Of a stretch of 64,000 nt of DNA, positions 740-60,900 are shown piece by piece (position 1 is the first letter of the stretch; every line of letters begins with the position of its first letter). This DNA is from Reclinomonas americana ATCC 50394. Its lineage: Eukaryota. The position numbers were made by a program, and so were the translations under genes. A model generated the notes under the pieces. The model worked only from the letters and a program-made list of their open reading frames with translations. It searched no databases and was not told the DNA's origin. Location of the stretch: assembly GCA_048213135.1 (NCBI GenBank), contig PS015140.1, positions 1-64,000 on the forward strand. Direction: 5' to 3'.

Positions 740-1908
740 CTCGCACAATCGCCTGGCCTTCTCCACACATCGAATGTACTCCACCGGAATGCTCAGCAGT
801 GTCGTCGGAGAACCACCACCAGCCATCGCCACAGCACCTCCTCCCCCCACACCTCCAAGACCTCCACCAGCAGGAGGGGGCACAGACACCACCAGCACAC
901 CTCCACTCGCACCTCCACTCGCACCACCTCCACTGCCCACCAGACCACCTCCACTGCTCCCTCCACTGCCCAGCTCCACTGCAACACCAGCAGCACCACT
1001 ACCACCACTTGACTGCATCAGTGGCGCACTGCCAACAGTGGCCGAGGAGGACGACAACGAGGAGGACAGTGAGGGAAGAGTGGTCGTCGGAGGTCCCACG
1101 CCCACTGCATTGCCACTGATGTTGCCACTGTTGCTGCTGCTGCTGCTGCTGCCTCCGACGGAGACAACAGTGGGGAGAGAGAGGGCAGGGCGGAGGGCGG
1201 ATTCAACGAGGTCGCTGAGTCGCTCCTGAGAAACGAAGGGGGAAGAAAGGTGAGAGGAAAGGGTGAGATAAATCGTCGCCTAAGGATGACTTAGGTGTTG
1301 ATAGGTGAGTGAGTGAGTGAGGAAGGCGGAAAGGGAGAGGAAGGGGAAGGGAAGGGTGAGTGAGTTAGTAAAGGAGTGAGTGTGCAAAAGTGTGCGTGTG
1401 CGTCAGTGTGTGAGTGTGAGAGTGTGAGAGAGTTTGCAGTGTGCGTGTAATTGTGTGTGTGTGATAGTGTGTGAGGAAGGGCGAGAAAGAGCGGAGAGTT
1501 AAGTGAAGAGTGTGAAAAAAACGTGCAAAAGTGTGCAAAAGTGTGCGAAAGTGTGTGATTGAGTGCGTGTTTGAGTGTGTGGGTGTGAGTGTGAGTGTAT
1601 GAGTGAGTGAGTGAGTGTGTGAGGAAGGGAGAGAAAGAGAGAAGAGTTGAGAGAGTGAAAAGTGTGCAAAAAGTGTGCAAAAATGTGTGTTTGAGTGTGT
1701 GTTTGAGTGTGTGAGTGTGAGTGTGTGAGTGTGAGTGTATAAGTGAGTGAGTGAGTGTGTGAGGAAGGGCGAGAAAGAGAGAAGAGTTGAGTGAGTGAAA
1801 AGTGTGCAAAAAGTGTGCAAAAGTGTGTGAGAGTGTGTGAGTGTGTGAGTGTTTGCACTTAACTGTGGCGGAGACGAGTTGCCGGAGAGCGCGATCCATT
1901 GCCGACAT
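740..1908 (-). CDS. Hypothetical Gly/Ser-rich protein, 5' part (exons 1908-1864 and 1225-740; continues off the left edge)
   Basis: ATG at 1908. GT..AG splicing joins MSAMDRALRQLVSAT to ERLSDLVESALRP...VEYIRCVEKARRLCE in frame, followed by a GTGTGC donor at 739. No family recognised. Confidence 0.6.
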
Positions 1909-1995
1909 CTTTGTTTGTGAGTGTGTTGGTGTTTGTGATTGAGTGTGAGGGTTACCGGCTAGTGTGTGTGTAACCTTTTCGGGGGAATTTCGACT

Positions 1996-2011
1996 GACCG
2001 TTGAAACGGTC
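1996..2011. promoter_or_regulatory. Inverted pair of AACGG (MYB/MSA-like) elements in the 168-bp divergent promoter upstream of ASPM
   Basis: GACCGTT-GA-AACGGTC is a perfect 7-bp inverted repeat; the function is inferred. Confidence 0.35.
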
Positions 2012-8000: not shown

Positions 8001-11000
8001 TTCCGGCGCTGGTCAATGTGGCCGAGTTGCGCGAGGAGACGCAGCGCATCTTCAACCGGTTCCCGATCCTGAAGGTGCAGTGCGATAAGCGATGATGAAG
8101 AGTTGGCTGGCTTTGAAAAATACTTACTTGTCGATTTTGTCGCAGGCTCACGCCACTCAAACCGATCGCACCAAGCACTACTTCCGCGCCGAGGAGCTGC
8201 AGACGCTTCTCGAGTGGACACAAGCCGTGTGCGAAATCTACAACTACTCAGTCACCAACTTTACCAGCTCGTTTGGCGACGGCAAGGCGTTGTGCCTGCT
8301 CATTCACCACTACCAGCCTGGCTTGCTGCCGCTCGATTCGATTCGCGAGACTCGCAGTGACATTGCCGGTCGCGAGCATGGAGGCAGCGACGGGGAGGGC
8401 GACGAGGAGATGGACGAGAGTGAGGTATGCCGCTGTGGCGGAGATCGACCACGCGGCTCTTTATTGTCCTCACACTTAAGTCCACGCGCAGCGCAAGGTG
8501 TGGCGCATGAGTTTCAGCCCGACCACTGGCCGACCGGCGCCCGCCCTGCGAACGTTGCTGGACAACGAGAAGCAGAATCTGCTGCTGGCCGCCCGCATGT
8601 CGCAGCAACTCGGCAATGTGCCACTGATTGGTGAGCGAAAGTCGCTCATTTCGTCTTGCTCATCCTTCCCCCTCCCTCACACACCTCCCTTGCAGTGAAC
8701 ATTGCCGACATGCACGACCAGATTCCAGACGAAAAGGTGGTCATCACCTTTGTGGCGTACCTGGCCAATCGCCTGCTCGACCTGCGCAAGGGCAGCCAGG
8801 CGGCCTATGTCATTCAGAATTGGTGGCTGAACATCAAGGCCAAGCGTCAACTGGCGGCCTCCAAACAGGCTGCTGGCACCATTGGCCGTGCGTTCCGCGG
8901 TTTCCTGGAGCGCAAGGAGGCCACACGACGCGAGAGAGCGGCGAAGCGCATCCAAGCCGCGTGGCGCGCCAGCTGCTGCCGCGCACAAGTGCGCGTGTTG
9001 CGTGCCGAGCGCGCTCAAGACGATGTGGTGGTGGCTCGAGTGCTGACCGCAGTGCGCTCGCGGTACGACGAGATGACTGTGGCGTTCAGGCAGAAGCGCG
9101 CCGAGCTGGCGTCTGTGTGCATTCAGGTGTGGTCGCCAAAGTTGAAGCAAAGGCACAGAATCCGTGAGCTCACTCTCTTTTTTCATCGCAGTCGTGGTTC
9201 CGCGCTGCGATCGCGCACCGTCGATATGTAACTCTCCGCGGTGGTTTTACCAAGCTGCAGGCCATGTGGCGCGCTCGCGCATCACGCCGTTCGTTCTTGC
9301 AGCTGCGACAGGCCACTGTTTGCTTGCAGGCGCATGCCCGAGCGTGGTCGGCCTCGCGCCGTTTCCTGGCAATCAAGTCTGCCGCCATTCACCTGCAAGG
9401 CGTGTGGCGACACCGCCAGTTCCGCCAGCGGCTGGCACAGGTGAGCAGAGAAAGAAGCGAGTGGCCGTGGTGATTACATTGCTGACATTTGGTATCTGTG
9501 TGTGCACAGCTCCGTCTGGCGTTCAACAAGGCTGCCGCGCTCATTCAGCGTCGTTTTGCGGTGTATCGCGCACGTCGTGAGTACCTGGCCACCATGCAAA
9601 AGATTGCCGCCGTGCAGCGTCAGTGCAAGAAGTGGTGAGTGGCAGTTGAGGGGAAGGAAAAACGAAGGGAGGGTGAGAAGGGGGGAGATTCGGGGAGGTC
9701 TTTGTCATATCTCTTTCAGTTTTCTATATAACACCATGAGTCTCTCAGCATGTCTGCGTATCAGACTGCCTTGGCTGCGGGATTACTCGTGGTTCCAGTC
9801 TCGATTGAGTTCTCTATCTGTCTCTTTCATGCACACGCTTGTTTGTCCTCCGTTTTTTGCTCTCTCTCTCTCTCCTTTTGCGCTGTTCATTTGTTGGAAT
9901 TATGCCCATTGATTGTTTCCACGGCCATTTTCTCGCTCCCTTTATTCCTGCTCTTTCGTACACTTATCATCGGACGCGTTCCAGACTCTGCCTCTGCCTT
10001 ACGGGCTGTGAGTTTTCTGGTTTCCCTTTCCTGCCTCTCTCTCGCACACATTGTCTGTCTCTCACTGCCTCTTTCTCTCTCTCTCTCCGCCTTTCTCTCA
10101 CTGCCTCTTTCTCTCACTACCTCTTCTCTCACTGCCTCCTTCTCTCACTGCCTTTCTTGCACTGCCTCCTTCTCTCACTACCTCTTCTCTCACTGCCTCC
10201 TTCTCTCTCCGCCTTTCTTGCACTGCCTCCTTCTCTCACTGCCTTCTTCTCTCACTGCCTCCTTCTCTCACTGCCTCCTTCTCTCACTGCCTTCTTCTCT
10301 CACTGCCTCCTTCTCTCACTGCCTCCTTCTCTCACTGCCTCTCTCTCGCACCCACACTACCTCTCACTTCTGTTCTTCCTTTCCCTATTTGCGAATCTCC
10401 TTGTACAGGCTGGCAACGAGGCAGCAGAGCGCAACTGTCATCCAATCCGCCTGGCGCCAATTCATCGTCCGCCGCCAGTATGCTTCCCAGATGGCATCGC
10501 TCGTGCGTGTGCAGTCGTTCATCCGTGGCCGTCTTGTTCGAGCGCGCTTTGTGGCCAGTCGGCAGGCTGCAATTCGACTGCAATCCGTCGTTCGCATGGT
10601 ACGATTTGTTCCTCACATGGAGTCCTTTCGATTGTAATCTCACGCCTCGCTACATTTCGCGTAGCACTCTGCACGCACTCACTTCCTGCGCCAACGCTCT
10701 GCGGTGACGACTCTTTCCGCTGCATATCGCAGCTGGAAGCAGCAGCGACAGTACACGCAACAGCGCACCGCCGCCATCAAGCTTCAGTCGATGGCTCGCA
10801 TGTCGGCGCAACGCAAGAGGTGCGTATTATCAATCGCAAAGCCCTCGCATGTCAAGCTCTCTCTTGTCTCACTTGCCGCCGATGCACAGCTTCATGGTCA
10901 CCAAGAGCGCCACGATTGTGGTGCAGTCGGCGTACCGTGCGCTGGTGGCCCGACGGGCAGTGACAGCCATGCGCCATGCTCGCCTGCTGCGAGCCACCAT

Positions 11001-14000
11001 TCTGTGCCAGTCGCTGGCACGCACTCGCCACGCTCGCGCAGTGTACCTGCAGCAGCGGCGTGACGTTGTGCAGCTGCAAGCTTGCATTCGTTCATGGATT
11101 CAGCGCCGCCGATTTGTGGCACTGCGTGAAGCGGCGATCACTGCACAGTCGTTCTGGCGCATGTTTGTGGCACGCCAGCGATACACGGCGCTGCAGCGTG
11201 CGGCGCAGACGATGCAGACGGCATTCCGTCGTCGTCAGGCGCTTGTGCGATATCGCAGCGCACGCGCGGCCATTATCAACATGCAGAAGGTGTGGCGCGG
11301 TCGATGCGCCCGGCTGTGGTTTGCCCGACAAGTGCAAGCGGTTCGCGTTGTCCAGTCGTTTATCCGCATGGTGCCGTCGCGAGTAAGGTGAAAAGGGTCA
11401 AGGGTCCTTCCCCTCCTTCCCCTCCTTCTCCTCCTTCTCCTCCTTCTTCTCCTTCTCCTCCTCCTCCTCCTCCTCCTTCTCCTCCTTCCTCCTCCTTCTC
11501 CTCCTTCCTCCTCCTTCTCCTCCTTCTCCTCCTTCTCCCCTTCTCCCCTTCTCCTCCTTTTCTCCTTTCTCACCCCCTTCTCCCTTGCGCACAGATTCGT
11601 GAAGCAACGCCGCGCGGCGGTGATCGTCCAGGCAGCTGCACGCATGTGGATTGCTCGTCACCAATTTGAGCGCACCCGCCGTTGCATCATTACGACGCAG
11701 GCGGTGGCCCGCCAATTCATGTTGCGTTGCATCTATGACACTCTCTCTTCCCGAATAGCAAAGTTGCTGACTGCCACTTCCTTGCCCCTTAGTGCACGCC
11801 GCGACTACCTCCACACACGACGCAGCATTGTTAGCATTCAGAGTCTTGTGCGCGGCTTCCTGGATCGCCGTACGGCCAGCCGCCGCCTGGCAGCCATTGT
11901 GCTGGTGCAAGCCTGTGCTCGCTCGTGGCGCCAGCGACGCATGTACGTCACACTGCGCGCAGCCGCAATGCGCACGCAAGTGTTGTGGCGTGCCAAGCGT
12001 GCCGGTGCAATGTGCGTTGCCTTCTAGTTTCTTTGCCACCAACCCCCGCCACGTCGTGCCTCATTCATTCGCATTCACAGCGCACGCGCCCAATTCCTTC
12101 GCCTGCGCCGCGCCACCACCACACTGCAGAGTGCAGTTCGCGGGCTCTACGCTCGTCGCCAATTCACCTCCACTCGCCGTGCCATTGTGCGCCTGCAGGC
12201 CATGGTACGCGGCCGCCAGCAGACGATGCAATATACTCGTCTGCGAAATGCCGCTTGCGTCATGCAGCAGCGCTGGCGTGCGCGAGTGGCCGCCTTGCAG
12301 TTTCGCTTCCCGTACTCTCGCCCCCTGAGTCGTTGATCTTTCTCACTTTCCCTGTTTGCATCCTCAGTGCTCGTGAGCAGTACACATACACTCGCAATGC
12401 GGTGGTGTTGCTGCAGTCGATGCGTCGCATGGCGTGCGTTCGCCGCGAGTTCACCAATCTCCGCGAGGCCGCAGTCGTGTTCCAGAAGAATGCGCGCAGC
12501 TGGCTCACTCGCCGTCAGTACGCTGCCACTCGTGCGGCGGCATTGACCGTGCAGGCTCGTCGCCGAGCACTTTTGGCGGGTCGTCGGTGCGTAGCAAAGT
12601 GTCTCTAGAAGACGTGCTGTTCTCAGAAAGAAGACTGACAAGAAGAATGTATCACACACAGGGACCTGGCTGCCTTCCAGCACGCCCGGCAATCCGCCAT
12701 TCGCGTGCAAGCATGGTGGCGTGCTCGTTTGGCTTCCATCCGCTGGCAGTCCATGCGCGCTGCCTGCATTCGCTTGCAGGCCTGGACACGTGGTCGTCAG
12801 CAGCAGGCTCGCTACACGACCATGCGCCGCGCGGCAATTCGCATTGCCGCCACTGTTCGTCGTCATCGCGCACAACAGCAGTTCACGCAACTGCGCCTCG
12901 CTGCCATCTCTGTGCAGTCGCACTTCCGTCGCTTGTGCGCCGTGCGACTGGCCTCCCAGCTGCGAGTGGAGCGTGAGGAACGCATTCGCGTGGAGAAGCT
13001 GCGAAACGCCGCGGCCGTGCACATTCAGCGCCTGTTCCGCACGTACATGCTGCGCAGTCGACGAGTGGAGTATGTGCAGGCGGTGGCCTGCATCTCACAC
13101 TGGTGGATTGGCGTGGTGACTCGACGGGCGTACATTCAGCTGCAGGAGGTGAGTGTGCGCGAGAGAAGGGAATGGGTCTGAGAAGAAAAGAGATCTCTCT
13201 TTGGGAGAAGCAAGAGAGCTCTCTGTGAGAAGAGAGCTCTCTGTGAGAAGAGAAAAGAGACCTCCTTCTCTTTAACAGAAGTGAAAAGAGAACTATTCGC
13301 TCTCGCTGAGAAGAAGAGAGATCTCTCTGTGAGCAGAGAAAAGAGAACTCTCTTTGTGAAAAGAAAAGAGAGCTCCCTCTGTGGGAAGAAACGAGAATTT
13401 TCTTCCTCTCTGAGAAGAGAAAAGAACTCTCTCAGAGAAGAAAAGAGAACTCCTTCAGAGAAGAAAGAGAACTCCCTGTGGGAGAAAAGAGAATTTTCTT
13501 TCTCTCTCTTTGAGAGAAGATGGAGAGCTCTCTCACAGAGAAGAAAAGAACTCTCTCTCTCTCTCAGAGAAGAAACGAACTCTCTCTCAGAGAAGAAACG
13601 AACTCTCTCTCAGAGAAGAAACGAACTCTCTCTCAGAGAAGAAAGAACTCTTTCTCTCTGAGAAGAAAAGGAGAACTCTCTCTCTCTCCCTTTCACTCTT
13701 GCTACTCCATTGCCTTGTCTCTTAAACTGTGGTGCGTGTCGCAGAACATTCGCCAGGAGCAATCGCGACGTCTGGCTGCGACTGTGAATATTCAGCGCAT
13801 GGTGCGTGGTTTCCTGCAGCGACGCCGCTACCAGCGCACGCTCGCCGGCGTCGTCCGCATGCAGGCAATGTGGCGAGGTCATGCGGTGCGCAAGGCCAAC
13901 AGCCGCCGCGTGGAGCGCACTCGGGCCAAGATTCGCGCCGTGTCGGCGCATGTGCCAGAAGATCGCAAGCTGCGCCACCGCACAAGCAGCGCCTTGTCGG

Positions 14001-14848: not shown

Positions 14849-14982
14849 ATACTGAAAATGAATCGAAGTTTGAATTGCTGTATGGAGGGGCAAAGGGGGA
14901 AGACGAAGGCTGTCAAGTCCACAAGGAAAGGTGTCCTGCAAAGTGAGGACTAGCTTTTCAATCCGTCGCCATTCAGAGCAGC

Positions 14983-16074
14983 ATGTCAATCGCTCCTCAC
15001 ACGCTCCCGCACAAGTGCCTGCTCGGTCACAACAAGTCGGTGTGGTCTGTGGCCGTCACTCCCGACGGTCTGCATGCTGTGAGTGGCGGCATCGACAAGA
15101 CAGTGCGAGTGTGGTCGCTGGCGACTGGAGAACAAGTGCGGCGACTAGAGGGGCACAAGCACTGGGTAGCATGCGTCACTGTCGCACCCGATGGTCACAT
15201 TGTGAGCGGCGGTGAGGACAGGACTGTGCGTGTGTGGTCTCTCGAGAGCGGCGATGAGGTGCGACGAATGGAGGGACACACAGATTGTGTGTCATCTGTC
15301 GCCGTGTCTCCAGATGGTGTGTACCTGGCGAGTGGGAGCCATGATTTCACAGTGCGAGTGTGGTTGATGGTGAGTGGACGCGCGTTGCAGACGCTCATTG
15401 GGCACAACAGCGCCGTCTGCTCTGTGGCCTTCACTCCTGACGCGCAGCACATTGTCAGTGGTGGTACCGACGCGCGTGTGCGAGTGTGGTACGTGGAGAG
15501 TGGGGAGGAGGTGATGCGGATGGTGGGTCACACTTTAGCTGTGTTCTCGGTTGCTGTCACCGCCGACGGTCTTCATGTGGTGAGTGGGAGTGATGACAAA
15601 ACAGTGCGAGTGTGGTCGCTGGAGAGTGGGGCGGAGGAGCGACAGATGGAGGAGCACACTGGGTGGGTGCGGTCGGTGGCTGTCGTTCTCTCCAGTCCAC
15701 GCACTATGGTGAGCGGCAGCTGCGACAAGACCGTGCGAGTGTGGTGCGTGGAAAGTGGGGCGCAGCGGTGGCGGCTGAAGGGGCACACCAGTGCAGTGCG
15801 GTCGGTTGCCGTCACTCGCGATGGCCTGCACATTGTGAGTGGTGGTGAGGACTGTACGGTGCGGGTGTGGTCCACGCCGTGCGGCCTCGCGAAGGAGGAG
15901 CTGGAGTGTACTCGGGTGGCAATGCGCGTCGTGCAGGAGATGGTGAGAGAGGAGGCAGAGGAGGAGGCAGAGGATCCGCGCTGCTTGGTGGAGATTGTGC
16001 TGCGCTGCTTCTTGGTGGAGGAGGCGGAGGTGGTGGTGCATCGGTGTTTCCATGATGACCGCCTCCGACTGTGA
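14983..16074 (+). CDS. WD40 array gene 1 (7 WD40 repeats + conserved C-terminal tail), intronless
   Basis: Seven GH..V..VAVTPDG..VSG..D.TVRVW repeats, then GLAKEELEC...EDPRCLVEIVLRCFLVEEAEVVVHRCF. Confidence 0.9.
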   Translation: MSIAPHTLPHKCLLGHNKSVWSVAVTPDGLHAVSGGIDKTVRVWSLATGEQVRRLEGHKHWVACVTVAPDGHIVSGGEDRTVRVWSLESGDEVRRMEGHTDCVSSVAVSPDGVYLASGSHDFTVRVWLMVSGRALQTLIGHNSAVCSVAFTPDAQHIVSGGTDARVRVWYVESGEEVMRMVGHTLAVFSVAVTADGLHVVSGSDDKTVRVWSLESGAEERQMEEHTGWVRSVAVVLSSPRTMVSGSCDKTVRVWCVESGAQRWRLKGHTSAVRSVAVTRDGLHIVSGGEDCTVRVWSTPCGLAKEELECTRVAMRVVQEMVREEAEEEAEDPRCLVEIVLRCFLVEEAEVVVHRCFHDDRLRL

Positions 16075-16398
16075 CGAAGGAAGAAGGATGGTCTTGGCTG
16101 GCTTCATGTGAGTGTCTTTTTCTGCCTTGCACGCACGAGAGGAGAGCGAGAAACCTCGCTGCCTGGCGGAGATTGTGATGCGTTGCTTCTTGGTGGAGGA
16201 GGCCGCTCCGTTTGTTCTTCGTTTCGTGTTTCCTTTTCGCTTCTTGATGGTTTACTACTATGTATGTATGCATTAAAGCAACCAACTCACTCATTCCGAG
16301 ACGACGGAGGCAAACGTCGGCGAAGGCACAATGTCCGTGCGAAATCATTGTCACGTCAATCACGCACGCACGCAGACCGTCTTTCTCTCTCTCGCACC

Positions 16399-17475
16399 AT
16401 GTCACTGACACTCCCGCACAAGTGTCTGCGCGGGCACACCGACTATGTGTCATCCGTCGCATTCACTCCCGACGGCCAACACATCGTGAGCGGGAGTTAC
16501 GATAATACCGTGCGAGTGTGGTCGCTGGCGACTGGAGAACAAGTGCGGCGACTAGCTGGGCACGCGCACTGGGTGGCATGTGTCACTGTCACCCCCGATA
16601 GTCTCCATATTGTCAGTGGCGGTGTGGACATGACGGTGCGTGTGTGGTCTCTCGAGAGTGGCGAGGAGGTGCGACGAATGGAGGGACACACACAATGCGT
16701 GTCATCTGTCGCCGTGTCTCCGGATGGTGTGTACCTGGCGAGTGGAAGCTATGATTCCACAGTGCGAGTGTGGTCGATGGTGAGTGGACGATCGTTGAAG
16801 GCGCTCATCGGGCACAACTACGACGTCTGTTCTGTGGCCTTCACTCCCGACGCACAACACATTGTCAGTGGTGGAATAGACGGTCGTGTGCGAGTGTGGT
16901 GCGTGGAGAGCGGGGAGGAGGTGAGGCGGATGGAAGGCCACACTTTGCCGGTGCTCTCCGTTGCTGTCACCGCCGACGGTGTCCACGTCGTGAGTGGCAG
17001 CGAAGACAGAACAGTGCGACTGTGGTCGCTGGAGAGTGGGAAGGAGGAGCGACTGATGGAAGGGCACACTGGGTGGGTGTGGTCAGTCACAGCTTCTCCC
17101 AGCGGTCGACACGCATTGAGCGGAGGAAATGATGTGCGTGTGTGGTCGCTGGCGAGTGGGCAGGAGGTCCTTCGGTTGGAGGAACACGATGAGGCTGTAT
17201 CGTCTGTCGCCGCCTCTCCCGACAGTCGGCGCATTGTGAGTGGGAGCCTGGACCTCACCATCCGGGTGTGGACCACTCTGTTCGGCCTTGCGGAGGAGGA
17301 GCTGGAGAGTGCGCGGGCGGCAATGTGCATTGTGCAGGAGATGGTGAGAGAGGAGGCAGAGGAGGAGGCAGAGGATCCGCGCTGCTTGGCGGAGATTGTG
17401 ATGCGCTGCTTCTTGGTGGAGGAGGCGGAGGTGGTGATGCATCGGTGTTTCAATCATGAACGCCTCCGACTGTAA
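16399..17475 (+). CDS. WD40 array gene 2
   Basis: Start placed at the conserved MSLTLPHKCLRGH; 7 repeats + tail. Confidence 0.9.
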   Translation: MSLTLPHKCLRGHTDYVSSVAFTPDGQHIVSGSYDNTVRVWSLATGEQVRRLAGHAHWVACVTVTPDSLHIVSGGVDMTVRVWSLESGEEVRRMEGHTQCVSSVAVSPDGVYLASGSYDSTVRVWSMVSGRSLKALIGHNYDVCSVAFTPDAQHIVSGGIDGRVRVWCVESGEEVRRMEGHTLPVLSVAVTADGVHVVSGSEDRTVRLWSLESGKEERLMEGHTGWVWSVTASPSGRHALSGGNDVRVWSLASGQEVLRLEEHDEAVSSVAASPDSRRIVSGSLDLTIRVWTTLFGLAEEELESARAAMCIVQEMVREEAEEEAEDPRCLAEIVMRCFLVEEAEVVMHRCFNHERLRL

Positions 17476-18006
17476 CGAAGGAAGAAGGATTATCCTGCCA
17501 GTTCATTGTGCGTGTCTTCTTTCTGCCTTGCACGCACGAGAGGAGAGCGAGAAACCTCGCTGATGCGCTCCTTCTCTGTGTGTCAGCGACGATCGCGTCC
17601 GACTTTGGCCTGCCTTCTTTGTTTCTTGTTTCTTTCAGCTTCATGATGTTGTTGTACTTTGTACGTATAAAAGCAACCAAGTCACTCATTCCGAGACGAC
17701 GGAGGCAAACGTCGGCGAAGGCACAATGTCCGTGCGAAATCATTGTCACGTCAATCACACACGCACACAGAGCGTTCTCTCTCGCCCACGCACCCTCACA
17801 CTCCCTCTCCCTCTCCTCCCTCTCTCTCTCTCTCTCTCTCTCACACTATCGTCTACTNNNNNNNNNNNNNNNNNNNNATCCGTCGCGAAATACACTTGTT
17901 CACGTCAATACACACACGCACACAGAGCGTCTCTCTCGCCCACCGCACCCTCCACACTCCCTCCTCCCTCCTCCTCCCTCCTCTCTCTCTCTCTCTCTCT
18001 CGCACC

Positions 18007-29739: not shown

Positions 29740-37255
<7,516 letters not shown>

Positions 37256-42915: not shown

Positions 42916-44265
42916 ATGGACGAGCTGCTTCGTGCCATCCACAGCCTCCTCCGCGAGCTCACCACTTTTCTCCACATGCTGCTCAACACCGCTCGCCACC
43001 ACACGCACACCTTCTCCTCTCGCTGGCTCCGTTTCCTCTTCATTCCCGCGCCTTTTGCCTCAATCTCTTCAACACCAAGTGCGCCTTCCGATGCGCGCTT
43101 TGCTGTATGGGAGGCGGCAGTACGCACCCGTGAAGCCCGCATCAAAGCCGGCCTTCTCACCGACATAAAGTCCCCCAAAACACCTGAGAAAAAGGCACCT
43201 GCTGCTGCACTGGTCACGCAGCGCAGTGTCGGTCGCCCGCCTCTGCGCGTGGACACGGAGGAGTGGAAGGAAAAGGAGAAGGAGGAGGAGAAGAAGAAGA
43301 AGACGAAGACAGTTGCCAGCCTCGGAGACAACTGCACGGGACACCTGATCTTCATTGCCTCTCACATGGACGAGCTGCTTCGTGCCATTCACAGCCTCCT
43401 CCGCGAGCTCTCCACTCTCCTCCACATGCTGCTCAACACCGCTCGCCACCACACGCACACCTTCTCCTCTCGCTGGCTTCGTTTCCTCCTCATTCCCGCG
43501 CCTTTTGCGTCTATCTCGTCACCAAGTGCGCCTTCCGATGCGCGCTTTGCTGTCTGGGAGGCGGCAGTGCGCACCCGTGAAGCCCGCATCAAAGCCGGAC
43601 TTCTCACCGACATAAAGCCACCTAAACCTGCTGAAAAGGCGACGAAAAAGGCACCTGCTGCTGCTGCACTGGTCACGCAGCGCAGTGTCGGTCGCCCGCC
43701 TCTGCGCGTGGACACGGAGGAGTGGAAGGAAAAGGAGAAGGAGGAGAAGAAGAAGACAGTTGCCAGCCACGGAGACAACTGCACGGGACACCTTGTCTTC
43801 ATCAGTCTCTCTCTCATGGACGAGCTGCTTCGTGCCATCCACAGTCTCCTCCGCGAGCTCTCCACTCTCCTCCACATGCTCCTCACCACCGCTCGCCACC
43901 ACACGCACACCTTCTCCTCTCGCTGGCTCCGTTTCCTCCTCATTCCCGCGCCTTTTGCCTCTATCTCGTCACCAAGCGCGCCTTCCGATGCGCGTTTCGC
44001 TGTATGGGAGGCGGCAGTACGCACCCGTGAAGCCCGCATCAAAGCCGGACTTCTCACCGATGTAAAGTCACCTAAACCTGCTGAAAAGGCGACGAAAAAG
44101 GCGCCAGCTGCTGCTGCACTGGCCACGCAGCGCAGTGTCGGTCGCCCGCCTCTGCGCGTGGACACGGAGGAGTGGGTGCGTGAGGTGCCGCGATGGAGGC
44201 CGTGGACGCACGCGACGCCGTTGCAGAGGCTGCGCATGCCGCTCTTTCCACCTCCATCCGCTTGA
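42916..44265 (+). CDS. Hypothetical protein made of three ~150-aa tandem repeats
   Basis: ATGGACGAGCTGCTTCGTGCC recurs at 42916, 43366 and 43816; the 449-aa frame stays open across indels; no recognisable domain. Confidence 0.45.
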   Translation: MDELLRAIHSLLRELTTFLHMLLNTARHHTHTFSSRWLRFLFIPAPFASISSTPSAPSDARFAVWEAAVRTREARIKAGLLTDIKSPKTPEKKAPAAALVTQRSVGRPPLRVDTEEWKEKEKEEEKKKKTKTVASLGDNCTGHLIFIASHMDELLRAIHSLLRELSTLLHMLLNTARHHTHTFSSRWLRFLLIPAPFASISSPSAPSDARFAVWEAAVRTREARIKAGLLTDIKPPKPAEKATKKAPAAAALVTQRSVGRPPLRVDTEEWKEKEKEEKKKTVASHGDNCTGHLVFISLSLMDELLRAIHSLLRELSTLLHMLLTTARHHTHTFSSRWLRFLLIPAPFASISSPSAPSDARFAVWEAAVRTREARIKAGLLTDVKSPKPAEKATKKAPAAAALATQRSVGRPPLRVDTEEWVREVPRWRPWTHATPLQRLRMPLFPPPSA

Positions 44266-44305: not shown

Positions 44306-47300
44306 ATGTTGCGCGTGGCTGGTGCGCTTGGGCTTAAGCAGTCGGCCTCGCCGCCGCCTACGTTTGGCTTGTCTGCGCTGAATCAGTCTGTTGCGTGCGT
44401 GGAGAGGAAGTGGGTGAAGAAGAGGGAGACTTGTTTCTCTTTCTCTCTCTCTCCCTCTCTCTCCCTCTCTCTCTCTCTTGTGTACATTCCTTTACCTTGT
44501 CTCTGTCATTCTCTATGTCGCTTCTTGCACTTTGTTTCTTGCTTCTCCCTCTTTGTTCTTCTTCTTCTTTTCTTCTTGCCTCCCTCTCCCTCTCTCTCTG
44601 TGCTCTTCCCTCTCGCCACCATGTATTCTGTTGCTCTTCTCTTCACTGTTTAGTGCTCACTCTTCCATCCTCCTCTCCTCTCCCTCTCTCTATCTCTTCC
44701 CCTAGGCCTCCCTGCACTCAAAACGCGTTTCTCCTTGCATTTCGCGCTCATATTCTCTCTTGCGCGCCACAGGTCAACCTGCACAAGGCAATGTGCGCGC
44801 CCGTCATTGCAGTCGAGTAACCTGCTCGCCCCTCACTGTCTCTCTGCCATTTGCTGAGTGCGTTTCTCCTATTTGTTGTTGCAGTTTCTGATTTGGATTG
44901 CGCACGGGTTGTCGTCATCGACGCCGATTGTTCCGCTGGTGTATTTGGCGTTGCATGGAGCGTATGGCGCGTGTTGGGTGCTGAAGAGCGTGTGCTTCCG
45001 CGATCGGGGCTTTGACATTGTTGCGTGGCGCTGCGGGGCGTGGGCGGAGTCTCGCCGGAGTGATGGTTGATTCTGTGCCGGTTTTCGCTCTCTGTGGATG
45101 TAATGCTACCCTGTTTCCCTCCCATATCTGTTGTTGATGGTGTCCCTCCCCTGTCTCTTCTCTATTCCTCTCTTCACTTTGTGTGGATGGTGTGCATTTA
45201 CCCTGTTTCTCTTCCGTATTTGCTCGCTAACCATACCGCTTCCCCGTCTCTTCTCCTTGTGGATATGCTTTCCTCCCATATCTGTTGTTGGTGGTACCTC
45301 TTCCCCGTCTCTTCCCCTTTCGTCTCTTCTCTTCCCCTCTCTTCTCGTGACTGCACTCTCCCTGTTCGATTTTTGCCTCTCTCTTCCCCCGTCGCATATC
45401 CTTTCATCTGTTCTCTTCTCTTCCCCTCTTCAGTGTGGTTCTACCCTGTTTCTCTTCCGTATTTGCTCGCTAACCATACCGCTTCCCCGTCTCTTCTCCT
45501 TGTGGATGTGCTTTCCTGTCCGGTTCTGTCTTATGTTGTCTCGTCCTTGTATCTTACTCCCCTCGTCTCTTCTCTTTCCCTCTCTCCGCCCTGCGTAGAT
45601 GTACTTTCCCTGATCTGTTTGTCTCTCATTCCCGTCGCTTATCGTTTCATCTCTTCTCTTTTCTTCCCCTCTTCACTTGGTGTGGGTGTGGTTCTGCCCT
45701 GCTTTTCTCCCGTGTGTCTGCTCTCTGATGGTGCCTCCCCTGGCACTTCTCTTTCGTCTCCTCGCTCTATGTGGATGTGCATTCCCTGTTGGTTCTGCTG
45801 TCTTATCCCGCCTCTTCTCCGTTCGTCTTGTCCCTTCTCTGCGTGGATGTATTTTTTCCCTTGTTTCGTATCTGCCCTCTTTTTGTTCTCTCGTCTCTCG
45901 TCTCTCGTCTCTCTCTCTCTCTCTCACTCTCTCTTCTCCTTTACCTCTTCTTTCTCTCCCCTCTCTCCGCTAAAGGGCGATTCATCTTGTCTCTGAGTGA
46001 CGGACATTTGCTTCTTCTGACCTTCCTTCTCGTGTTTGTGCGAATCCTGATCCCCGTTTTCCTTGACGCTCACCTCCTTTGCCCTTCACGATGCAGCCTC
46101 TTCCATGGTACCTGTTCGCGTTCACGCAGTTCTCCGCTGGATTGCACTGGTGAGTCCACTACTCGGCACCATGTTTCCCTTGAGTTCCAACCCCTCGGCG
46201 CTGCAGGGTCAACTCGTGGCTGATTGTGCGCTCGGACCACCGTGATACGTCGCCGTGGACGGTGTGCCTCTCGGTGGCTCTCGTGTGCATGGGCATGTTT
46301 GGTGCGTTGTGGGAAAGGAAAGGCATGGGGTTTGCGTACTGCATCTCACTCCAGATTGTCGCAATTGCAGCGCTGTACACGGCCGACTGCCAAAAGGTGC
46401 GCGTCACTGCAGCTGCATATCAATCGCCCTGCTCGCTCATCTCCTTTCTATCCCAGCACTTTGTGATGAAGTACAACTCTGGGAAGCTGATGACTGACGG
46501 CGTGTTCGGTGAGTGGGCTGAAGAGGAGAGGAGCGGTACATTGATGGTTCTGCTTGCGCTACATCCTCCACACGACACCTTGCACATGGTCTTTGTAGCT
46601 GTAACCCTCTCCTCGTTTCCACAGTTTCATTCTCCACACCTCCCTTTCTTTTCAGTTTATCTCTGCATCTTTCGTTTTCCATTCTTCTTCTTGTTATTTG
46701 TAATCCACGCCACCATACCCTTCATCGTTCGAGTGACACGTGAGAGATTTCATTCTGCGCAGTCCCTTCTACTTCACACTTGTTCTTCTTCGTTCGAGTG
46801 ACACATGACGTACAGACTCTTGGACGCATTCGTGTCACGTCATTTCGTCCGGCTGTGTTGCACCGCATATCCCAGTCCGTGCAGAATCTCCCCTCCGCTT
46901 TTCGTTCCTTCTGTTTCTGGCGTGCATCACTGTCCTACTCTGTTCAAGATGTACACACCTGGAACTGAAGTCCATTCACCTTCTGTAACTATATCATGTG
47001 CACCCTGCTATCGTTCTTCATTCCAATGGCTTGAGAGTGACTATGCACTCATTGGCAGTTTCTGCCCGTCTCATTCCTTTCGTCCCTTATGTCTTGTGCT
47101 CCTCACTGCCCTATTCACCGTTACGACGGGTACGCGGAATAGCGACTGTCACTCTTCTTTTCTTCCGCCCCTCCCCCTTCCTCATCTCCCTCATCCCTCC
47201 TTCTCCCCACTGGCAGCCCGCGTCCGCAACACCAACTACCTCGGCGAGATGCTGCTGTACACCGGCTTCAACATCCTCTCCACCTCGCCCCTCATCTCCT

Positions 47301-47434
47301 TCTCCATTCTCGCCTGCTCGTGGTTCGGCCTCTTCACCCCCAACATGCTGGTCAAGGACAAGAGCCTGTCGCGCTACCCCGGATGGGAAGAGTACCGCCG
47401 CCACTCGGCGCTAGTGATTCCCTTCTTGCTGTGA
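44306..47434 (+). CDS. DUF1295 / steroid 5-alpha-reductase-like membrane protein; about 8 exons
   Basis: Spliced motifs VNLHK, VYLALHGAYGACWVLKS, ADCQKHFVMKYNSGKLMTDGVFARVRNTNYLGEMLLY and PNMLVKDKSLSRYPGWEEYRRHSALVIPFLL*; the start codon is inferred. Confidence 0.85.
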
Positions 47435-48921: not shown

Positions 48922-50387
48922 TGAGAAACAAGACATTTATCAGGAGATGCTGCACATCCCTTTCTGCGCACATACTTCATCACAACAAACTCACATATAA
49001 CTTTCACCACCTCCTCTCCATCTCTCCTTCTCTCTCGTCTTGCCAAAGATTTAAAAACCTATCGGCTGTCGTTGAATTTCTCGCACTCTCTCCGTTCCTC
49101 TCGCATTCTCTCCACTCGTGTCTCCCGGTTTCCCGTGTTCTCCTTGACTCGTTTACACATGAACGCACAGTCACTCCTATGTAGTGCCTGAGACACAAGC
49201 TTGATGGCGGGCGTTGCAACTCCATATTTCACCAGCTCTCTCTCACTCTCTCTCTCTCAAGATTCAAACAACCTATCGGCTGCCGTGACTCCCGGTTGCC
49301 CGTGTTCTCTCTTTCACTTGTTTACACACAAACGCACAACACTGCTACTTAGTGCCTGAAACACAAGCTTATGGCAGGTATTGCATCCCCAAATTTCATG
49401 CGTTCTCTCTCTCTCTCTCACTCTCAATTCCCTTCCCCTCCCTTTTCCCTTAGCCTTTCCCTCCCTCCCCCACTCACCGCCAGCTGTCGCATCAAGTGCT
49501 CGCGGAACTGACTGCGAACCTGCGTCCCACACACGACAACCAAGTGAGGACACGAAACACACTCACCCTTCGTTCACAAGCACACTCAACATCTGGGTCC
49601 GACATGGCCTCGGCAAACGACAGCGAGTCGAGCAGCGACTGCTCCTTCTCAGTGCTCTGCTCCGAACGCGCTCGGCTGGCCCAGAAATCCAACACCAGCG
49701 TCATGAAGGCACCAAAGAGTCCGGGAATGGTAATCAGCAAAGTGGCAAACGCCGGTCCGAGGGCGTCGGCGTTGCCAAAGGGCGAACTCGTGGCGGTGAT
49801 GCCGACCGCAACTGCAAGAGAGGGAGAGTGAGCCCGCAGTGCGGACTTGCGCAATGCAGTCTCCACACTCAACTCGGCGCGAAAATCACTTCCGCGATAG
49901 CGATGCACAGTAGCTCGTTGCGATGATACAGCGCGTCACGAATGCCTGTTGCGTTGTAAGACAAGGAATGTAGGATCAGGAGAGTGAGGTCCAATAATCA
50001 CGCACGACGCAGGCGGAACGCTGCAGCGGCCAGGCCGACCGCATACAGCAGATCCACAATGCTCGTAATCAGCGAGCCGTACTCCTCGATCCAGCCGCAG
50101 AAGCAGAACTGCTGGCTGGCCGGATTTGGAGGGAAGATCCACGCCCACGAGGACACACCGTATTTGATGGATACCACGGCTGCGCCAAGTGGGGACGTGA
50201 GGGCGGAAGGATAAAAGGGAAAGGGGTGTAAAAGGGAAAGGGGGTGCAACAGGGAAGGGAGGGGATACAAGGGGATGGGAATGTGGAACAATAGAGTGCA
50301 CCAAAGAAAATGAAGTGACAAGCAACAATAATGAAGAAAAGGGCAAGGTACAGAGAAGACGGTGCGGAATTAAGATCAGAGAGAGAA

Positions 50388-50418
<31 letters not shown>

Positions 50419-52490
50419 CAGAGAGAGAGAGACAGAGAGAGAGAGAGGAGGAGAGAGAGAGAACGAAGAGAGAGAGAGAGAGAGACAAACACGATACTCA
50501 TGGGAAGAAAAGTGACGAAAACAGGAGGAACAGAAGGCAAGTAACGTGGAGAGAGCGAGAAAGGGAAAGATGAAAAGAATGCAGTAGAGGAAAATTTCGA
50601 TGTTCAAGAGGGATGAAGTGACCCACACGATACGCAAGGGCAGAGCAGAGAGCGAGAACGGGAAGATTGTACGCCAAGTGAGACACATACACCGAAGTTC
50701 AAGAGACATGAAGAGACGCACAAAATGGAACAAGCGAAGAGGATAGGGCGCGAAAAGGGAAATGGCGAAGCTACCACGACAGATTAGAGATGACAACGAC
50801 GTATTCAAGGGAGACGAAATGACGCACGCAACAGGAATGGAAGGGAAAGCAGAGAGGAGAGAGCGAGAAAGGGAAAGATGGAGAGCTTGTATGCCAGATG
50901 TGATACAAACTTCGATGCAAGAGAGACGAAACATACATACACACACACTCTCACACACAAACACACACTGCACTCACTGCACTCACGAACACACACAGCA
51001 CTCACTGCACTCACGAACACACACACACACACAGAGAGAGAGAGCGAGAAAGGGAGAGCATACACAAAGCATAAGGCCACGTCATGCAAGACACCACCAA
51101 CGCACCAAACATGATCAAAAAGTAAAAGATGGCCAGAACCAGTGACCACCACAGCAGGCGCGTCTCGGAAAAGTACGCCGCTCGCCGATACATGCGCTTG
51201 TGCTTGTCACTGGACTGCAGGCGCACTTCCTCGGTTGGTTGCTGCGATACGTCCTGGTACAGCGCGAAGGAGGCCTTGAACTTGAGTTCTAATCTGTACA
51301 TGCGGAAGATCTGCCCGCGACACATCAAGAAATGAGCGCCTATTCTTTTGCTGCATTTCCCCTGTTTCTCTTCCCACCTGCAGCGTGGCAAACACAGCGA
51401 ATGCCCACGTGGCCAGGAACGGAGCGTGACACCACGCGGTATTCGCCTCGGTGACCACCACTTCCAACCATCTGGAAATGCATGCGTCAGCGTGGTGATG
51501 GAATTGTGCGAGAGATGGGTGGATTTACGCAACAATACCAGCGAGCCGATGACATAGGAGGCCGCACCCAGCAGTGGCGATCGTTTGCTCAGTCGCCTTC
51601 TGAAGACGACGAAGAACTGCGTGGAGGAGAAGGGGGTGAGATGGGAAGGGGATGAGGAGGGGAAAGGGAGGGGGAAGGAGGGAAAGAGTGGAAGAGGAGA
51701 AGAGGGAAAGAGGAGAAGAGGGAAAGAGGGAGAAGAAGAGAAAAGAGGAAGCGGAAGGCGATGAGGAAGAGGACGAGGGAAAAGAAGGACGGATGAGGAA
51801 GAGAAAGAGGGAAGAGGCAGAGGCAGAGAATGAGGAAGAGAAAGAAGAAGCGGACGAGAACGAGGAAGAGGAAGTAGCTGAGGAGGAAGAGGAAGAAGGG
51901 GAAGAGGAAGAGGAAGAGGAAGAGGAAGAGGAAGAGGAAGAGGAAGAGGAAGAGGCAGAGGAAGAGGGAAGAGGGAAGAGGGAAGAGGGAAGAGGGAAGA
52001 GGGAAGAGGGAAGAGGGAAGAGGGAAGAGGGAAGAGGAAGAGGAAGAGGAAGAGGAAAGACGGAGGGGAAAGACGGAAGGGGGAAGCGGAAGGGGGAAGC
52101 GGAAGGGGGAAGGGGGAAGANNNNNNNNNNNNNNNNNNNNCCTTCTCTCTCACACACACACGCCACTCACAATGCCAATCAACGACGCCAATGCTCCCGC
52201 AATACTCCACACCGCCTTTGCACACACGCACAACACAATCAATGGGGAAAATCGCATTAGACTGCAAACTCTCTTCTCGCACACACAGCACACACACACT
52301 CACCTGATTAAACGGAGTCGCCCACATTGGCGCAAACCCAGCCGCAATCCACGTCATGAGCGCACTGATGCACTCTGCACACAACAAAGAGAGAGAGAAA
52401 GAGAGAGAAAGAGAAAGTGAATAACTCCGCCTCCTCACTCACACAATTAACGAAGACATGCGCACCGGGAGAAGGCGGCACGTCCGCCAT
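47507..52490 (-). CDS. 7TM-RGS protein (multi-pass membrane domain + C-terminal regulator of G-protein signalling domain); about 12 exons
   Basis: About seven hydrophobic segments, including FATLQIFRMYRL and RRIRDALYHRNELL, then the RGS pattern SFAEAMSDPD|VRSQFREHLMRQLA|LENELFVAMVEVWR..IAKDLYQEFV..QHELNLPHDV..VLRSLREDCFPRF. Confidence 0.8.
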
Positions 52491-55769: not shown

Positions 55770-55807
<38 letters not shown>

Positions 55808-57018: not shown

Positions 57019-57910
57019 GCGCCGGGGGGCCTCGAGGCAGTGCTCTCTTTCTTTCTTTGTGTGTGTGTCAGTTTCTCATGTGATGGCGACAACTATGCCG
57101 TGGTACAGTGTGATGTTTCGAGGGGAGGGGTGAGTGAGAGAAGAGGTGAAAATCATGGGGGTCTCTCGTCGCTCTCCACCTCGAAAGTGGGCGAAAAGTG
57201 AATGTGAAATCGTGTGATTTTACGGGAGCGGATGCAGCGATGAATGTTAAGGCAGCGATGGACACGGGCGCCATCTCTTGGATCAACAACCGACAAGCCT
57301 GCGGTTCTGCGCCAGCAACATTTCCCGATCGCCTCCCCTGCGATCGCAGTCGGCTCACAAACAAGGAGGTTTTCCGTCACGGAGGAACTCGTTCGCCTGT
57401 AGCGATTACAACTCCTCTGCAAGATGCGCAACGTAAAGGCACTGGTGTGGGAGCTTCGTGCAGGTCAGGCCTCATTCGTGAACTGGCGGGCATTGGGTGT
57501 GCCGAGCTGCACGAGAAGGCACTGGTGGGCTCCAAGCAGCTCATCCGCACAGTACCGGTATCGTCGAGAGCAGGCGATGCTGGCCTCAGCTTCCGCTCCC
57601 GTACTCATTTCCTCGGATGACCACGGACTTTCTCCTTTCTCGTGTTCCTCTTCCACTTCTTCCTTCCTGCTTCCTTCTTGCTTTTCGTCCCTTCTCTTCA
57701 ATCGTGTCTGCCACTGTGCCATCTTGCCCTTCTCCCTCTCCTTCTCGACAACCTGCCTATTCGCAAGGGTCTTATGTGCAGAGCGAAGAGCGAGACCTGT
57801 GTCAATTGTTCGCAGGCACTGCGCCGTCCCTCTTCCCCACAAGTTACAGAAAGGATTCGTCATTTAAATGTATTGTGTGGTTGACTATGAGAAGAATACC
57901 TGCGCCCTTA

Positions 57911-60900
57911 TCACGACGCCTTGGTGGGCGACAGCACGAGCGTGCCGTTGCTGCTGGCAGTGACCTGCATGGATTTGTCATCTGCGAGACAAATTGTAAG
58001 GACGCAGCGCTGCCATCGCTCCTCCTTGCACACAGTCGCTCCTCTTCTCGCTGTCGCTGCGTCGCTCCTCTTCTCGCTGTCGCTGCGTCGCTCCTCTTCT
58101 CGCTCTGTCGCTGCGTCGCTCCTCATCTCGCTCCGTCACTGCGTCGCTCCTCCTCTCGCTGCGTCGCTGCGTCGCTCCTCCTCTCGCTGTCGCTGCGTCG
58201 CTCCTCTTCTCGCTGCGTCGCTGCGTCGCTCCTCTTCTCGCTCTGTCGCTGCGTCGCTCCTCTTCTCGCTNNNNNNNNNNNNNNNNNNNNTCGCTGCGTC
58301 GCTCCACCTCTCGCTATCGCTGCGTCGCTCCTCTTCTCGCTATCGCTGCGTCGCTCCTCTTCTCGCCGTGAACTCACCTGGCAGTGGCACATCTTCGCCC
58401 ATCATGCGAATGTCGACGGCGTGGCGCAGGTACGTGCGGCGAGCAATCAGGAAGGCCGCCAGGCCGAGGAAACCACCGGTCACCAGCGGCACCCACGGCA
58501 TGGGCGTCGAGACGAACGACGGGTGTGTGAAGAGGCTGAGAAGGCCGAGGAAGAGGTACTTGCCGGAGGAGGTGGCTGTGGATAATCAGCAAGTCATGGC
58601 GAAGAAATAAGCGCATCATCTTCTCACTCACCGAGGGTGGTGAGTGCACCGGTGGCGCCAAACAACTTGCCCTGGTGATCACGCGAGACGGCTTCGGAGA
58701 GCAGGCCGTTGACCGCCATGCTGCTGACGTAGAAGAGGCTGTTGGGGATCAGCAGGAGGTATACTTGCCATGACTGCGATGGGGAGAAGGGAGGGGGTGA
58801 GGGGAAGTGAGGGGAAGGGAGGGTGAGGGGTAAGGAGGGGTTAAGGGAGGGGAAAAAGTAACGATGAAGGGAGAGGAGAATGCCAGTGGGAAGAGAGAAG
58901 GAAAGAAGAACAAAGGAATGACGGCGGGAGAGAGATCAGAAGATAGAGAGAGAGAAGAAGAAGAGGGCGAGAAGAGAGAAGGAAAGTGAAGCGAGCAAGA
59001 TGCCAGTTTTCTTATTTCCTTTCTCCCTTACTCTCAGCTGTTTCGTCGCTTTCCGTCTTCTTTGTCTGCCCGCTATCGTGGCGACGAGACACACCGCAGG
59101 TTCTCCTTCTCACTCTCTCCACCTCTTGCTCTCCTCAATTTCACTCTCACTCTCTTCATAAGAAATCCTCCCTCTCGCCCTGAGACTTTTTTCCAGCTGC
59201 TCAGTCCCGTATCGCGTTGCCTGCCACTTGGCTGCCGCTGTTGTAGTTGTAACAACGAGGTACGCTGCAGCACTGCCTCTTGCTCTCTGTCTGTTTCTCG
59301 TTCTCTATCTGTTTCTCTCCCTCTCCAACTCTCTCTCTCTCTCTCTCTCTCTCTCNNNNNNNNNNNNNNNNNNNNCTCTCTCTCTCTCTCTCTCTCTCTT
59401 CTCCCTCCCTCGATTCACTCTCTCCCCCTCCCATTCTCTCCTCCTCCTCCTTTCCCTCTTACCCCCACGCACATTAGTGGACATGGCAAGCCCAAAGTAG
59501 GCCACCATGAGACACGCAAGACCGATCAACGACGTGGTCGGCCGCCCAAAGTGCTTCACGACTCGCTTCAGCAGCACGCCCTGCACAATGCACGCCAGAA
59601 CGCCTGCCGCCACCACCAACCACAAGTCAGCAATCAATCAATCAACAATAACGTGCCCTCTTTCCCTACCAGAGAAAGCCAACGACGAGTACGTCTGGCG
59701 CGAGGTCCACTCGAGTTGCATTTGCGCAAAGAAGGCCCACGTGGAGGTCATCGCCTGCACCGCCATGTAGATCAAGAACAGCAGTCTCGCCAGGCTCCAA
59801 ATGAGTGGCGAGCTCAGCAGCGATCTGCACACAATCAAAGCTCAGTCATCTCCTTCTTATTGTGCGCACTCCCTGCAAACCTCACAAGCTTTCTCGTTTC
59901 AGTCATGCTTTTGCACTCCGTCCCTCACTCCCATCTCCCTCCTTCGCTCAGCTCTCTCTCTCTCTCTCCTCATTGAGAAAGGGTGAGAGGAGAAGAGAGG
60001 AGAGAAGGAGAGTAGAGGACCGGAGAGGAGGGACAGAACAGGAGAACAAAGAAGAGGCACGACAAGAGGGGAGAGGAGAGAGCAGGAAAGAAGAGAGAGG
60101 AGGAGGGGACAGGACAGGAGAACAAAGAAGAGGCACGACAAGAGGGGAGAGGAGAGAGCAGGAGAGAAGAGAGAGGAGGAGGGGGAGATCTCTCTCTCTC
60201 TCTCCCTTCCCCCTCCTCCCCTTCCCTTCCCTTCTCTCTCTCTCTCTCTCCCCTTTCCCTCTCCACAGGGACGCAACGACACACTCTGCAGCGGCGACAC
60301 ATCATTCCACCGCAGACTCTTCAACTCGGCCACCGACGAGATCAACGAGTGATGCCGCGAGCGATCGAGCGTCTCCTCAAACGCCACCAGCACATACACC
60401 AGCGCCACGGCCAGTGTGCAGGCAGCTGCAGCGCTGATCTCGCGTGCCGACCAGCCCGCATGTGTCAGGTACGCTCCCAACGCCGGCCCGAGCATGAATC
60501 CGATGCCTGCCGCCACATGAGTCGGAGGAGAATGAGGAGAAGAGGAAGACACTTGGTGGCACGCACCAAACGACATGCCCATGAGTCCGAATCGCGTCGT
60601 CCGCTGTGCCGGCGTGCTCACATCGGCAATCACGGCCTGGTTGATCGAAAAGTGCACGGTGGAGATGCCGGCGAGGCACTTGGCGAACACGACCATCGAC
60701 ACGCGATGCGAACCGCTCAGTACCCAGTACTCCACAATTCCGCCAATCATCGCGTACACCAACATCGGCTTGCGCCCAACGCTTTTGCAAAGGAAAAGAG
60801 TCAGCATGCAACTGCAATGATCCGAACACGGTGTTTTTCGCGCGCTTTTCTCTGTGCCTCACCGATCACTGAGTGCGCCGAGCAGCGGAGTCAGGAAGCA

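Follow-up and report, generated by a model that had tools for sequence, protein, structure and literature searches.

The stretch of DNA analysed here, called the window below, comprises the first 64,000 nucleotides of contig PS015140.1 from the draft assembly of Reclinomonas americana ATCC 50394 (GCA_048213135.1). This 64-kb eukaryotic sequence has a G+C content of about 55%, contains 18 runs of N and carries numerous introns, whose lengths mostly fall between 57 and 92 nt, the shortest verified one measuring 57 nt. A preliminary description of the window had pointed to twenty 5' splice sites (donors) whose consensus seems to be displaced by one base, with G at intron position +6 instead of +5. 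All 20 motif strings were found at the coordinates and on the strands given there, and 13 of them fall in two genes that can be tested with profiles made from independent homologues:

30907..37255, plus strand: part of an ABCG half-transporter gene, with 26 exon pieces, 23 scored introns and 10 displaced donors
44306..47434, plus strand: DUF1295/steroid-reductase-like gene, with 7 exons and 6 introns (3 displaced and 3 ordinary donors)

In both genes, every in-frame, stop-free GT-AG alternative within ±60/75 nt was scored against the profile. The ABCG profile was made from 17 half-size transporters, found among 100 relatives returned when a 55-residue exon was queried against 1.84 billion representatives; a word-index protein search with one ABCG exon gave no match. 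For the 23 ABCG introns, alternatives within 60 nt of either end were considered, and 168 proteins were scored. The DUF1295-like profile comprised 49 homologues from a word search with the last exon. In addition, the window was read by a donor-blind parser, which scores codon usage, intron composition, acceptor and intron length, and of the donor only the GT.

The spliced ABCG model with its 26 exon pieces reached 554 bits against the 17-homologue profile, being colinear with it and ungapped across the conserved motifs, and the seven-exon DUF1295-like model reached 200 bits and was top-scoring at all six introns, the three ordinary donors there following G. The displaced donor put forward in the preliminary description obtained the highest score at all 10 ABCG sites and at all 3 DUF1295-like sites, that is, at every one of the 13 sites tested by profile. 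Its margin was at least 9 bits, or there was no rival, at 8 sites; it was 4.5-5.6 bits at 3 sites and below 4 bits at 2. In view also of the statistics given below, the displaced donors form a real and well-supported class, statistically solid within the window. The ten ABCG introns are as follows (lower case, exon; ^, exon end):

32255..32316, plus strand: intron, aca^GTTCCGT, 62 nt; margin 10.9 bits; also the pick of the donor-blind parser
32583..32651, plus strand: intron, aca^GTTGCGA, 69 nt; top of 21 in-frame options, margin 4.5 bits; parser agrees
33403..33479, plus strand: intron, ttc^GTTGCGC, 77 nt, followed by a 5-nt exon; margin 9.8 bits
33674..33738, plus strand: intron, aat^GTTTCGT, 65 nt; no rival in-frame donor within ±60 nt
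34135..35302, plus strand: intron, gaa^GTTGTGT, 1168 nt including an N run; margins only 1.4 and 3.5 bits
35630..35689, plus strand: intron, tct^GTTGCGT, 60 nt; sole alternative donor 15.7 bits worse
36207..36268, plus strand: intron, tac^GTTGCGA, 62 nt; margin 9.7 bits over the in-frame cgt^GTGACT; parser agrees
36425..36490, plus strand: intron, att^GTTGCGT, 66 nt, followed by a 1-nt exon; margin 10.5 bits; parser agrees
36492..36583, plus strand: intron, c^GTTGCGT, 92 nt, after the 1-nt exon; margin 16.1 bits
36716..36789, plus strand: intron, ggg^GTTGCGT, 74 nt; margin 5.6 bits; parser agrees; the sole displaced donor after G

The rival at 32255 is an ordinary-looking in-frame donor, cga^GTGAGC, which lies 15 nt downstream at 32270 and would leave an intron of 47 nt; those of 34135 include gtt^GTGTTT at 34138, only 3 nt downstream. 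Splicing at 33403 yields the invariant His of the ABCG H-loop, the 5-nt exon at 33480-33484 (plus strand) encoding the H-loop His-Gln. In an exhaustive search allowing up to two introns, the 5-nt and the 1-nt exon both gave the best solutions, with one-intron solutions 17.4 and 10.8 bits worse, respectively. The 1-nt exon is a single C within CAG^C^GTTGC and can be placed at 36491 or 36531 (plus strand) with equal scores, the latter placement giving the donor GTTGCTG. Elsewhere in the gene, an N run of 89 positions (33559-33647) splits one exon. Its flanks encode residues that adjoin each other in the family profile, with just one left to explain, and so the true gap is probably much shorter than the run suggests.

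The three displaced introns of the DUF1295-like gene are:

44390..44772, plus strand: intron, tct^GTTGCGT, 383 nt; only 1.8-2.3 bits ahead of donors at 44399 and 44414
44812..44884, plus strand: intron, gca^GTCGAGT, 73 nt; single rival donor 4.5 bits worse
45020..46096, plus strand: intron, att^GTTGCGT, 1077 nt; rival donors at least 21.4 bits worse

At 44812, read-through hits a stop after 6 nt, and the junction alignment at 45020 is gapless. In the donor at 44390 and in eight other GTTGCGT donors, the T at +7 gives rise to another GT, five bases inside the intron; the one at 44395 begins a perfect GTGCGT, and such tandem donors, if used, would shift the frame. The nearest homologues found for this protein have about 205 residues, several of them being named from bacterial metagenome bins. 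If the gene were of bacterial origin, its six introns, three of them displaced, would all be gains.

Across the two genes, 29 introns were verified by profile, comprising 14 with an ordinary donor (G at +5), 13 with a displaced donor (G at +6 and no G at +5) and 2 others. The ordinary class takes the form G^GT(G/T)NG(T/C), for example GTGCGT, GTGAGT or GTTTGT, with G at +3 in 11 of 14, G at +5 in 14 of 14 and T at +6 in 9 of 14 donors. The displaced class takes the form N^GTTGCGT and, less often, GTTGAGT, GTTTCG or GTTCCG; its positions +3 to +7 read T, G, C, G and T in 12, 11, 11, 13 and 10 of the 13 donors, G at +5 being absent (0/13) by definition. Thus, the look of an ordinary donor with one extra base, as described previously, is borne out, T G C G T at +3 to +7 copying positions +2 to +6 of the ordinary GTGCGT. 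Among all 20 proposed sites, T is found at +3 in 19, G at +6 in 20 and T at +7 in 16.

The two classes also differ at the exon end. As had been claimed, ordinary donors mostly follow G (12/14), whereas only 1 of the 13 displaced donors does so (Fisher 6.9e-5), and 19 of the 20 proposed sites follow another base (T at 8, A at 7, C at 4 and G at 1). At unused GT sites in these genes G precedes in 9.3%, a level matched by the displaced class, and therefore G at -1 is not depleted there, there being merely no selection for it. Looked at from the exon side, 12 of the 14 verified donors after a non-G base are displaced, 8 of them with GTTGCG, and donors after G are varied. Moreover, G at +6 occurs in 13 of the 15 donors without G at +5, as against 21% of unused GT sites (1e-7), so that this combination is commoner than background, as the preliminary description would have it.

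The hexamer GTTGCG, present in 12 of the 20 proposed sites and 9 of the 13 verified displaced donors, is not enriched window-wide: its 23 copies on the plus strand and 17 on the minus strand correspond to about the composition level, and therefore the question is whether particular copies act as donors. With 696 sense-strand GT sites and 29 donors in the two verified genes, 11 of the sites begin a GTTGCG, and 9 of these act as donors (hypergeometric 5e-12). T follows at +7 in 9 of 12 donor copies versus 2 of 10 non-donor copies. CA stands in front of the GT at 5 of the 20 sites, compared with 5.1% of unused GT sites (p=0.003), and A is the last exon base at 7 of 20, compared with 14.6% (p=0.02).

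The seven proposed sites outside the two profile-tested genes are:

11721..11792, plus strand, ASPM-like gene: intron, cat^GTTGCGT, 72 nt, in frame if retained
12300..12367, plus strand, ASPM-like gene: intron, gca^GTTTCGC, 68 nt; parser agrees
51472..51533, minus strand, membrane-protein gene: intron, att^GTTGCGT, 62 nt; parser agrees
49812..49873, minus strand: intron, cga^GTTGAGT, 62 nt; parser agrees
49520..49590, minus strand: intron, gat^GTTGAGT, 71 nt; ambiguous
60270..60277, minus strand, MFS transporter gene: candidate donor, gtc^GTTGCGT; string present
1857..1863, minus strand: candidate donor, aca^GTTAAGT; string present

Four of these (11721, 12300, 49873 and 51533) are backed by frame, acceptor or repeat spacing. 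Splicing at 11721, the only in-frame pair with a good acceptor, preserves the 23-residue IQ spacing of the gene, with retention leading to a spacing of 47 residues. At 12300, read-through stops after 36 nt and splicing gives a 27-residue IQ unit, which is seen elsewhere in the gene; the only rival, a donor at 12312, would make a unit of 31 residues. Four in-frame pairs exist at 51533, its own alone having a pyrimidine-rich CAG acceptor, and at 49873 read-through meets an immediate stop, the other of the two in-frame pairs being 44 nt long with a poor acceptor. The site at 49590 has an ordinary in-frame rival, agg^GTGAGT, 24 nt downstream at 49566, which would make a 47-nt intron, shorter than any verified one (57 nt or more). 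The exon following 60277 was not found, a word-index search with an MFS exon returning no homologue, and the reading frames around 1863 are of low complexity and without homology.

The donor-blind parser picked 12 of the 20 proposed sites. It called 79 introns in the window, namely 43 with G at +5 (37 after G), 18 displaced ones (1 after G) and 18 others (6 after G), and its classes are associated with G at -1 just as in the verified set (Fisher 2.9e-9). The association was replicated outside the two tested genes, where 29 of 34 ordinary but none of 8 displaced donors follow G (p=1.1e-5). The parser misses the 5-nt and 1-nt exons and is doubtful in long introns, its intron-length prior having been learnt from the profile-verified ABCG introns; some of its calls are surely wrong, and its errors are blind to the pattern under test. 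Because displaced donors make up 13 of the 29 verified introns and 18 of the 79 parsed ones (23%), the earlier estimate of about one fifth of introns can be judged fair.

Apart from their donors, displaced introns resemble ordinary ones. All 13 verified displaced introns gave their best profile score as GT...AG, with 3' ends CAG in 11, AAG in 1 and TAG in 1, and 10 of the 13 have the motif CT(C/G/A)A(C/T) at a distance of 9-50 nt from that end, as do 11 of the 14 ordinary introns. Pyrimidines in 15 nt average 9.9 versus 10.9, so that both classes share a CTSAY branch-like motif, a pyrimidine tract and CAG; the short introns of either class measure 57-92 nt. U12-type introns likewise form a second donor class alongside the major one; however, their donor motif is different, no (A/G)TATCCTT donor was seen, TCCTT occurs in the first 12 nt of 0/13 displaced introns, and the 3' and branch signals are as in ordinary introns, so this assignment was rejected. 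An all-against-all blastn-short comparison of 22 short introns revealed only low-complexity matches of 8-17 nt, and an introner or mobile-element origin was discarded, because the bodies of displaced introns share no sequence and they are thus not copies of one element. A derivation from GTTTGC by loss of one T was also dismissed, the invariant G at +6 and the T at +7 being unmatched in GTTTG(C/T)N donors. Finally, a frame-keeping cut one base later at both intron ends was abandoned, as it would replace the H-loop His at 33403.

Pairing of U1 snRNA shifted by one base (+1) has been described experimentally for rare human 5' splice sites (Roca and Krainer 2009, as cited in PMC4856993). Going by its motif and exon-end statistics, the displaced class is a variant of this known and normally very rare kind of donor, whose mechanism here we infer. 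Both kinds share GU at +1/+2, U at +3, the core one base further inward, G at +6, U at +7, the lack of an exon-end G and a cut before GU; CA precedes GU in a quarter of our sites. Unlike the human shifted sites, which are rarities, the donors described here account for 18 of 79 introns in the donor-blind parse and for 13 of 29 verified introns. Their core is GCG, compared with AAG in the human sites as presented in PMC4856993, and the class here was recognised by sequence analysis.

In our preferred reading, to which we give an even chance, U1 pairs with the displaced donors one base out of register. The first G of the intron would pair where the exonic -1 G usually does, the U at +2 would face a mismatch, and positions +3 to +7 would pair as +2 to +6 normally do. 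CA in front of GT would stand in for the CA of CAG^GT, and its enrichment would be expected if CAG^GT were moved by one base. The near-exclusive GCG core would compensate for the lost pair, and the cut would remain before GU because, as we propose, U5/U6 rather than U1 later fix the cut site. A nearest-neighbour fold against the human-type U1 5' end taken from PMC4856993 placed CA^GUUGCGU, GUUGAGU and GUUAAGU in the shifted register. That positions of U1 binding and cutting are routinely uncoupled in this lineage, with a fifth to nearly half of a gene's introns shifted and possibly a dedicated U1 or U6 variant, is a broader suggestion which we consider doubtful. If it were true, introns would no longer depend on an exon-end G, and both exon ends and places where introns are gained would be less restricted in what they can encode.

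Several observations weigh against a shifted register. The shifted duplexes are weak with a human-type U1, ranging from -0.3 to -2.4 kcal/mol for GUUGCGU sites, with AUU^GUUGCGU reaching only -0.3 kcal/mol. The earlier proposal of a second pairing register or a variant snRNA holds in part: the replacement of the exonic -1 G by the first G of the intron fits the sequence statistics. U1 pairing alone does not explain the strong preference of non-G exon ends for the displaced form, since an ordinary GUGCGU without a -1 G should pair at least as well, and T, which is unpairable at -1 in the shifted register, is the commonest base there (8/20). GTTGCG alone is not sufficient as a donor, because at least six sense-strand exonic copies are apparently unused (6434, 8026, 8997, 35748 and 44308 on the plus strand, 40257 on the minus strand). 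The sample is small, with 13 verified displaced donors in two genes within 64 kb, and the class is unevenly spread, with 10 of 23 ABCG introns versus 0 of 10 short introns in an ankyrin/OGFOD2-like stretch. Five of the 20 sites (34135, 44390, 49590, 1863 and 60277) are no more than candidate donors, and the 1-nt ABCG exon may reflect a one-base assembly error.

An artefact, whether by donors misplaced to fit the pattern, by errors of the draft assembly or by chance occurrence of GTTGCG, is highly improbable in our view. It could draw on the absence of a window-wide enrichment of the about 40 hexamer copies, on the 18 N runs together with a junction requiring a 1-nt exon, and on the perfect ordinary donors lying in frame a few codons downstream of 32255 and 49590. 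However, homology profiles that are independent of the window favour the displaced donor at 13 of 13 sites, the donor-blind parser recovers both the class and its association with the -1 base also outside the two verified genes, and the enrichments have probabilities of 5e-12 and 1e-7. Accepting the class as real, one may keep the normal U1 register and bulge out one U of +2/+3, with G+1 and the exon end paired as usual, since GUU-GCGU matches a one-U bulge as well as a shift from +3 onward. Donors of this kind (Roca et al. 2012 as cited; Tan et al. 2016, PMC4856993) have the same arrangement of GU, an extra U and the core, and the bulge +2/+3 and bulge +3 registers are assigned to 68 and 51 of 201,541 human donors (PMC4856993, Table 3), figures that refer to these related registers and not to the shifted one. 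At 36716, the sole site after G, the fold indeed leaves the exonic G's paired. Yet a bulge pairs position -1, and the preference for G should persist there as it does in ordinary donors (12/14); it is observed at 1 of 13 sites, which is background level, and the enrichment in front of GT is for CA and not for AG. A bulge thus fits less well, and we regard it as quite unlikely.

Two further explanations move the reading away from a standard U1. The displaced class might be a lineage-specific form of the split between exon-driven AG//GUNNN and intron-driven NN//GURAG donors, read at the U6 ACAGA box and U5 loop 1 or by U1-C/LUC7. Two such classes are reported in several species (PMC11732430, PMC9803359), one relying on the exonic G and the other, as here, combining a tightly defined intron motif with an exon end that is free to vary. 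A seesaw of this type is seen in the window, donors after G being varied (GTGAG, GTGCG, GTGTG, GTTTG, GTTTCC, GTCTCT) and those after non-G being almost all GTTGCG, and the failure of U1 pairing energy alone to account for the preference would suit recognition by U6, U5 or proteins. However, the published intron-driven motif occupies +3 to +5, whereas ours lies one base inward at +4 to +6, which would be unpaired in the usual U6 register, and reads GUUGCG, not GURAG or GUGCG, with C at +5 in 11 of 13 donors. A further difference from that split is that donors of the exon-G class in the window retain G at +5 as well, and with 12 of 14 +5 G donors following G there is no trade-off between the two positions. 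We consider this explanation unlikely, albeit with a distinct chance of being right. A second, variant U1 or U6 serving the displaced donors, for instance a U1 changed at position 8 and so having no mismatch with GUUGCGU, would agree with a sharp and near-invariant class, as a dedicated guide would give (GTTGCG in 12 of 20 proposed and 9 of 13 verified sites), and with the weak pairing to standard U1. Against it, an Rfam scan of the 64-kb window found no RNA gene, and hence no U1, U6 or U5, variant or otherwise, and both classes stand side by side in the same genes with 3' signals alike. We regard such a variant as very unlikely.

The ordinary core GTGCGT of the window corresponds to an atypical consensus already known from the green alga Ostreococcus lucimarinus, in which donors outside chromosome 2 have the consensus GTGCGTG (Irimia and Roy 2008, PMC2483917). 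In contrast to the window, that genome is intron-poor, and no displaced GTTGCG class is mentioned in the passages of that paper that were consulted. The literature that we found on shifted and bulged registers is human-centred, and a literature search revealed no publication treating GTTGCG or six displaced heptamers as donors; the search did not extend to supplements, and an earlier description is possible.

Otherwise, shifted or bulged recognition has been documented at a few human sites and in minigene experiments. With N^GTTGCGT serving about a quarter of introns, this organism would offer a natural test system for what sets the cut site once U1 has departed, for the tolerance of U6 and U5 towards an extra base, and for whether it is U1, U5 or neither that demands a G at the exon end. 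In practical terms, gene finders with a single donor matrix will misplace displaced donors and may pick an ordinary-looking GT some codons downstream, as at 32270 and 49566, thereby adding false residues to proteins.

Besides the two profile-tested genes, the window contains the following coding regions:

about 2.1-14.8 kb, plus strand: ASPM-like gene (ASH and CH domains; extended IQ array)
14947-28800 (plus strand) and 62311-63999 (minus strand): WD40-repeat genes, a tandem family of at least 9 paralogues
41.2-37.5 kb, minus strand: ankyrin and OGFOD2-like coding stretches
about 52.3-47.7 kb, minus strand: multi-pass membrane-protein gene
60.8-58.4 kb, minus strand: MFS transporter gene

The exons of the minus-strand membrane-protein gene gave no match in Pfam, and one of them gave none in a PDB sequence search; a tentative reading of the gene as RGS-like was not used as evidence. 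The WD40 paralogues are mostly single-exon genes and have a C-terminal tail in common. The frame of the ASPM-like gene stops at 8074-8104 (plus strand), where the sole GT-AG pair, 28 nt apart, is unworkable; perhaps the draft carries a frame error here, or a splice has gone unrecognised. Long tandem repeats that are CT-rich on the sense strand lie within introns at 31108-32007, 32908-33192, 34341-35279, 45199-45675 and other places, and one ABCG intron displays a tandem repeat of 35 copies of 26 bp. Just upstream of the DUF1295-like gene, at 42887-44175, a 450-bp unit is repeated in 2.8 copies with 91% identity.

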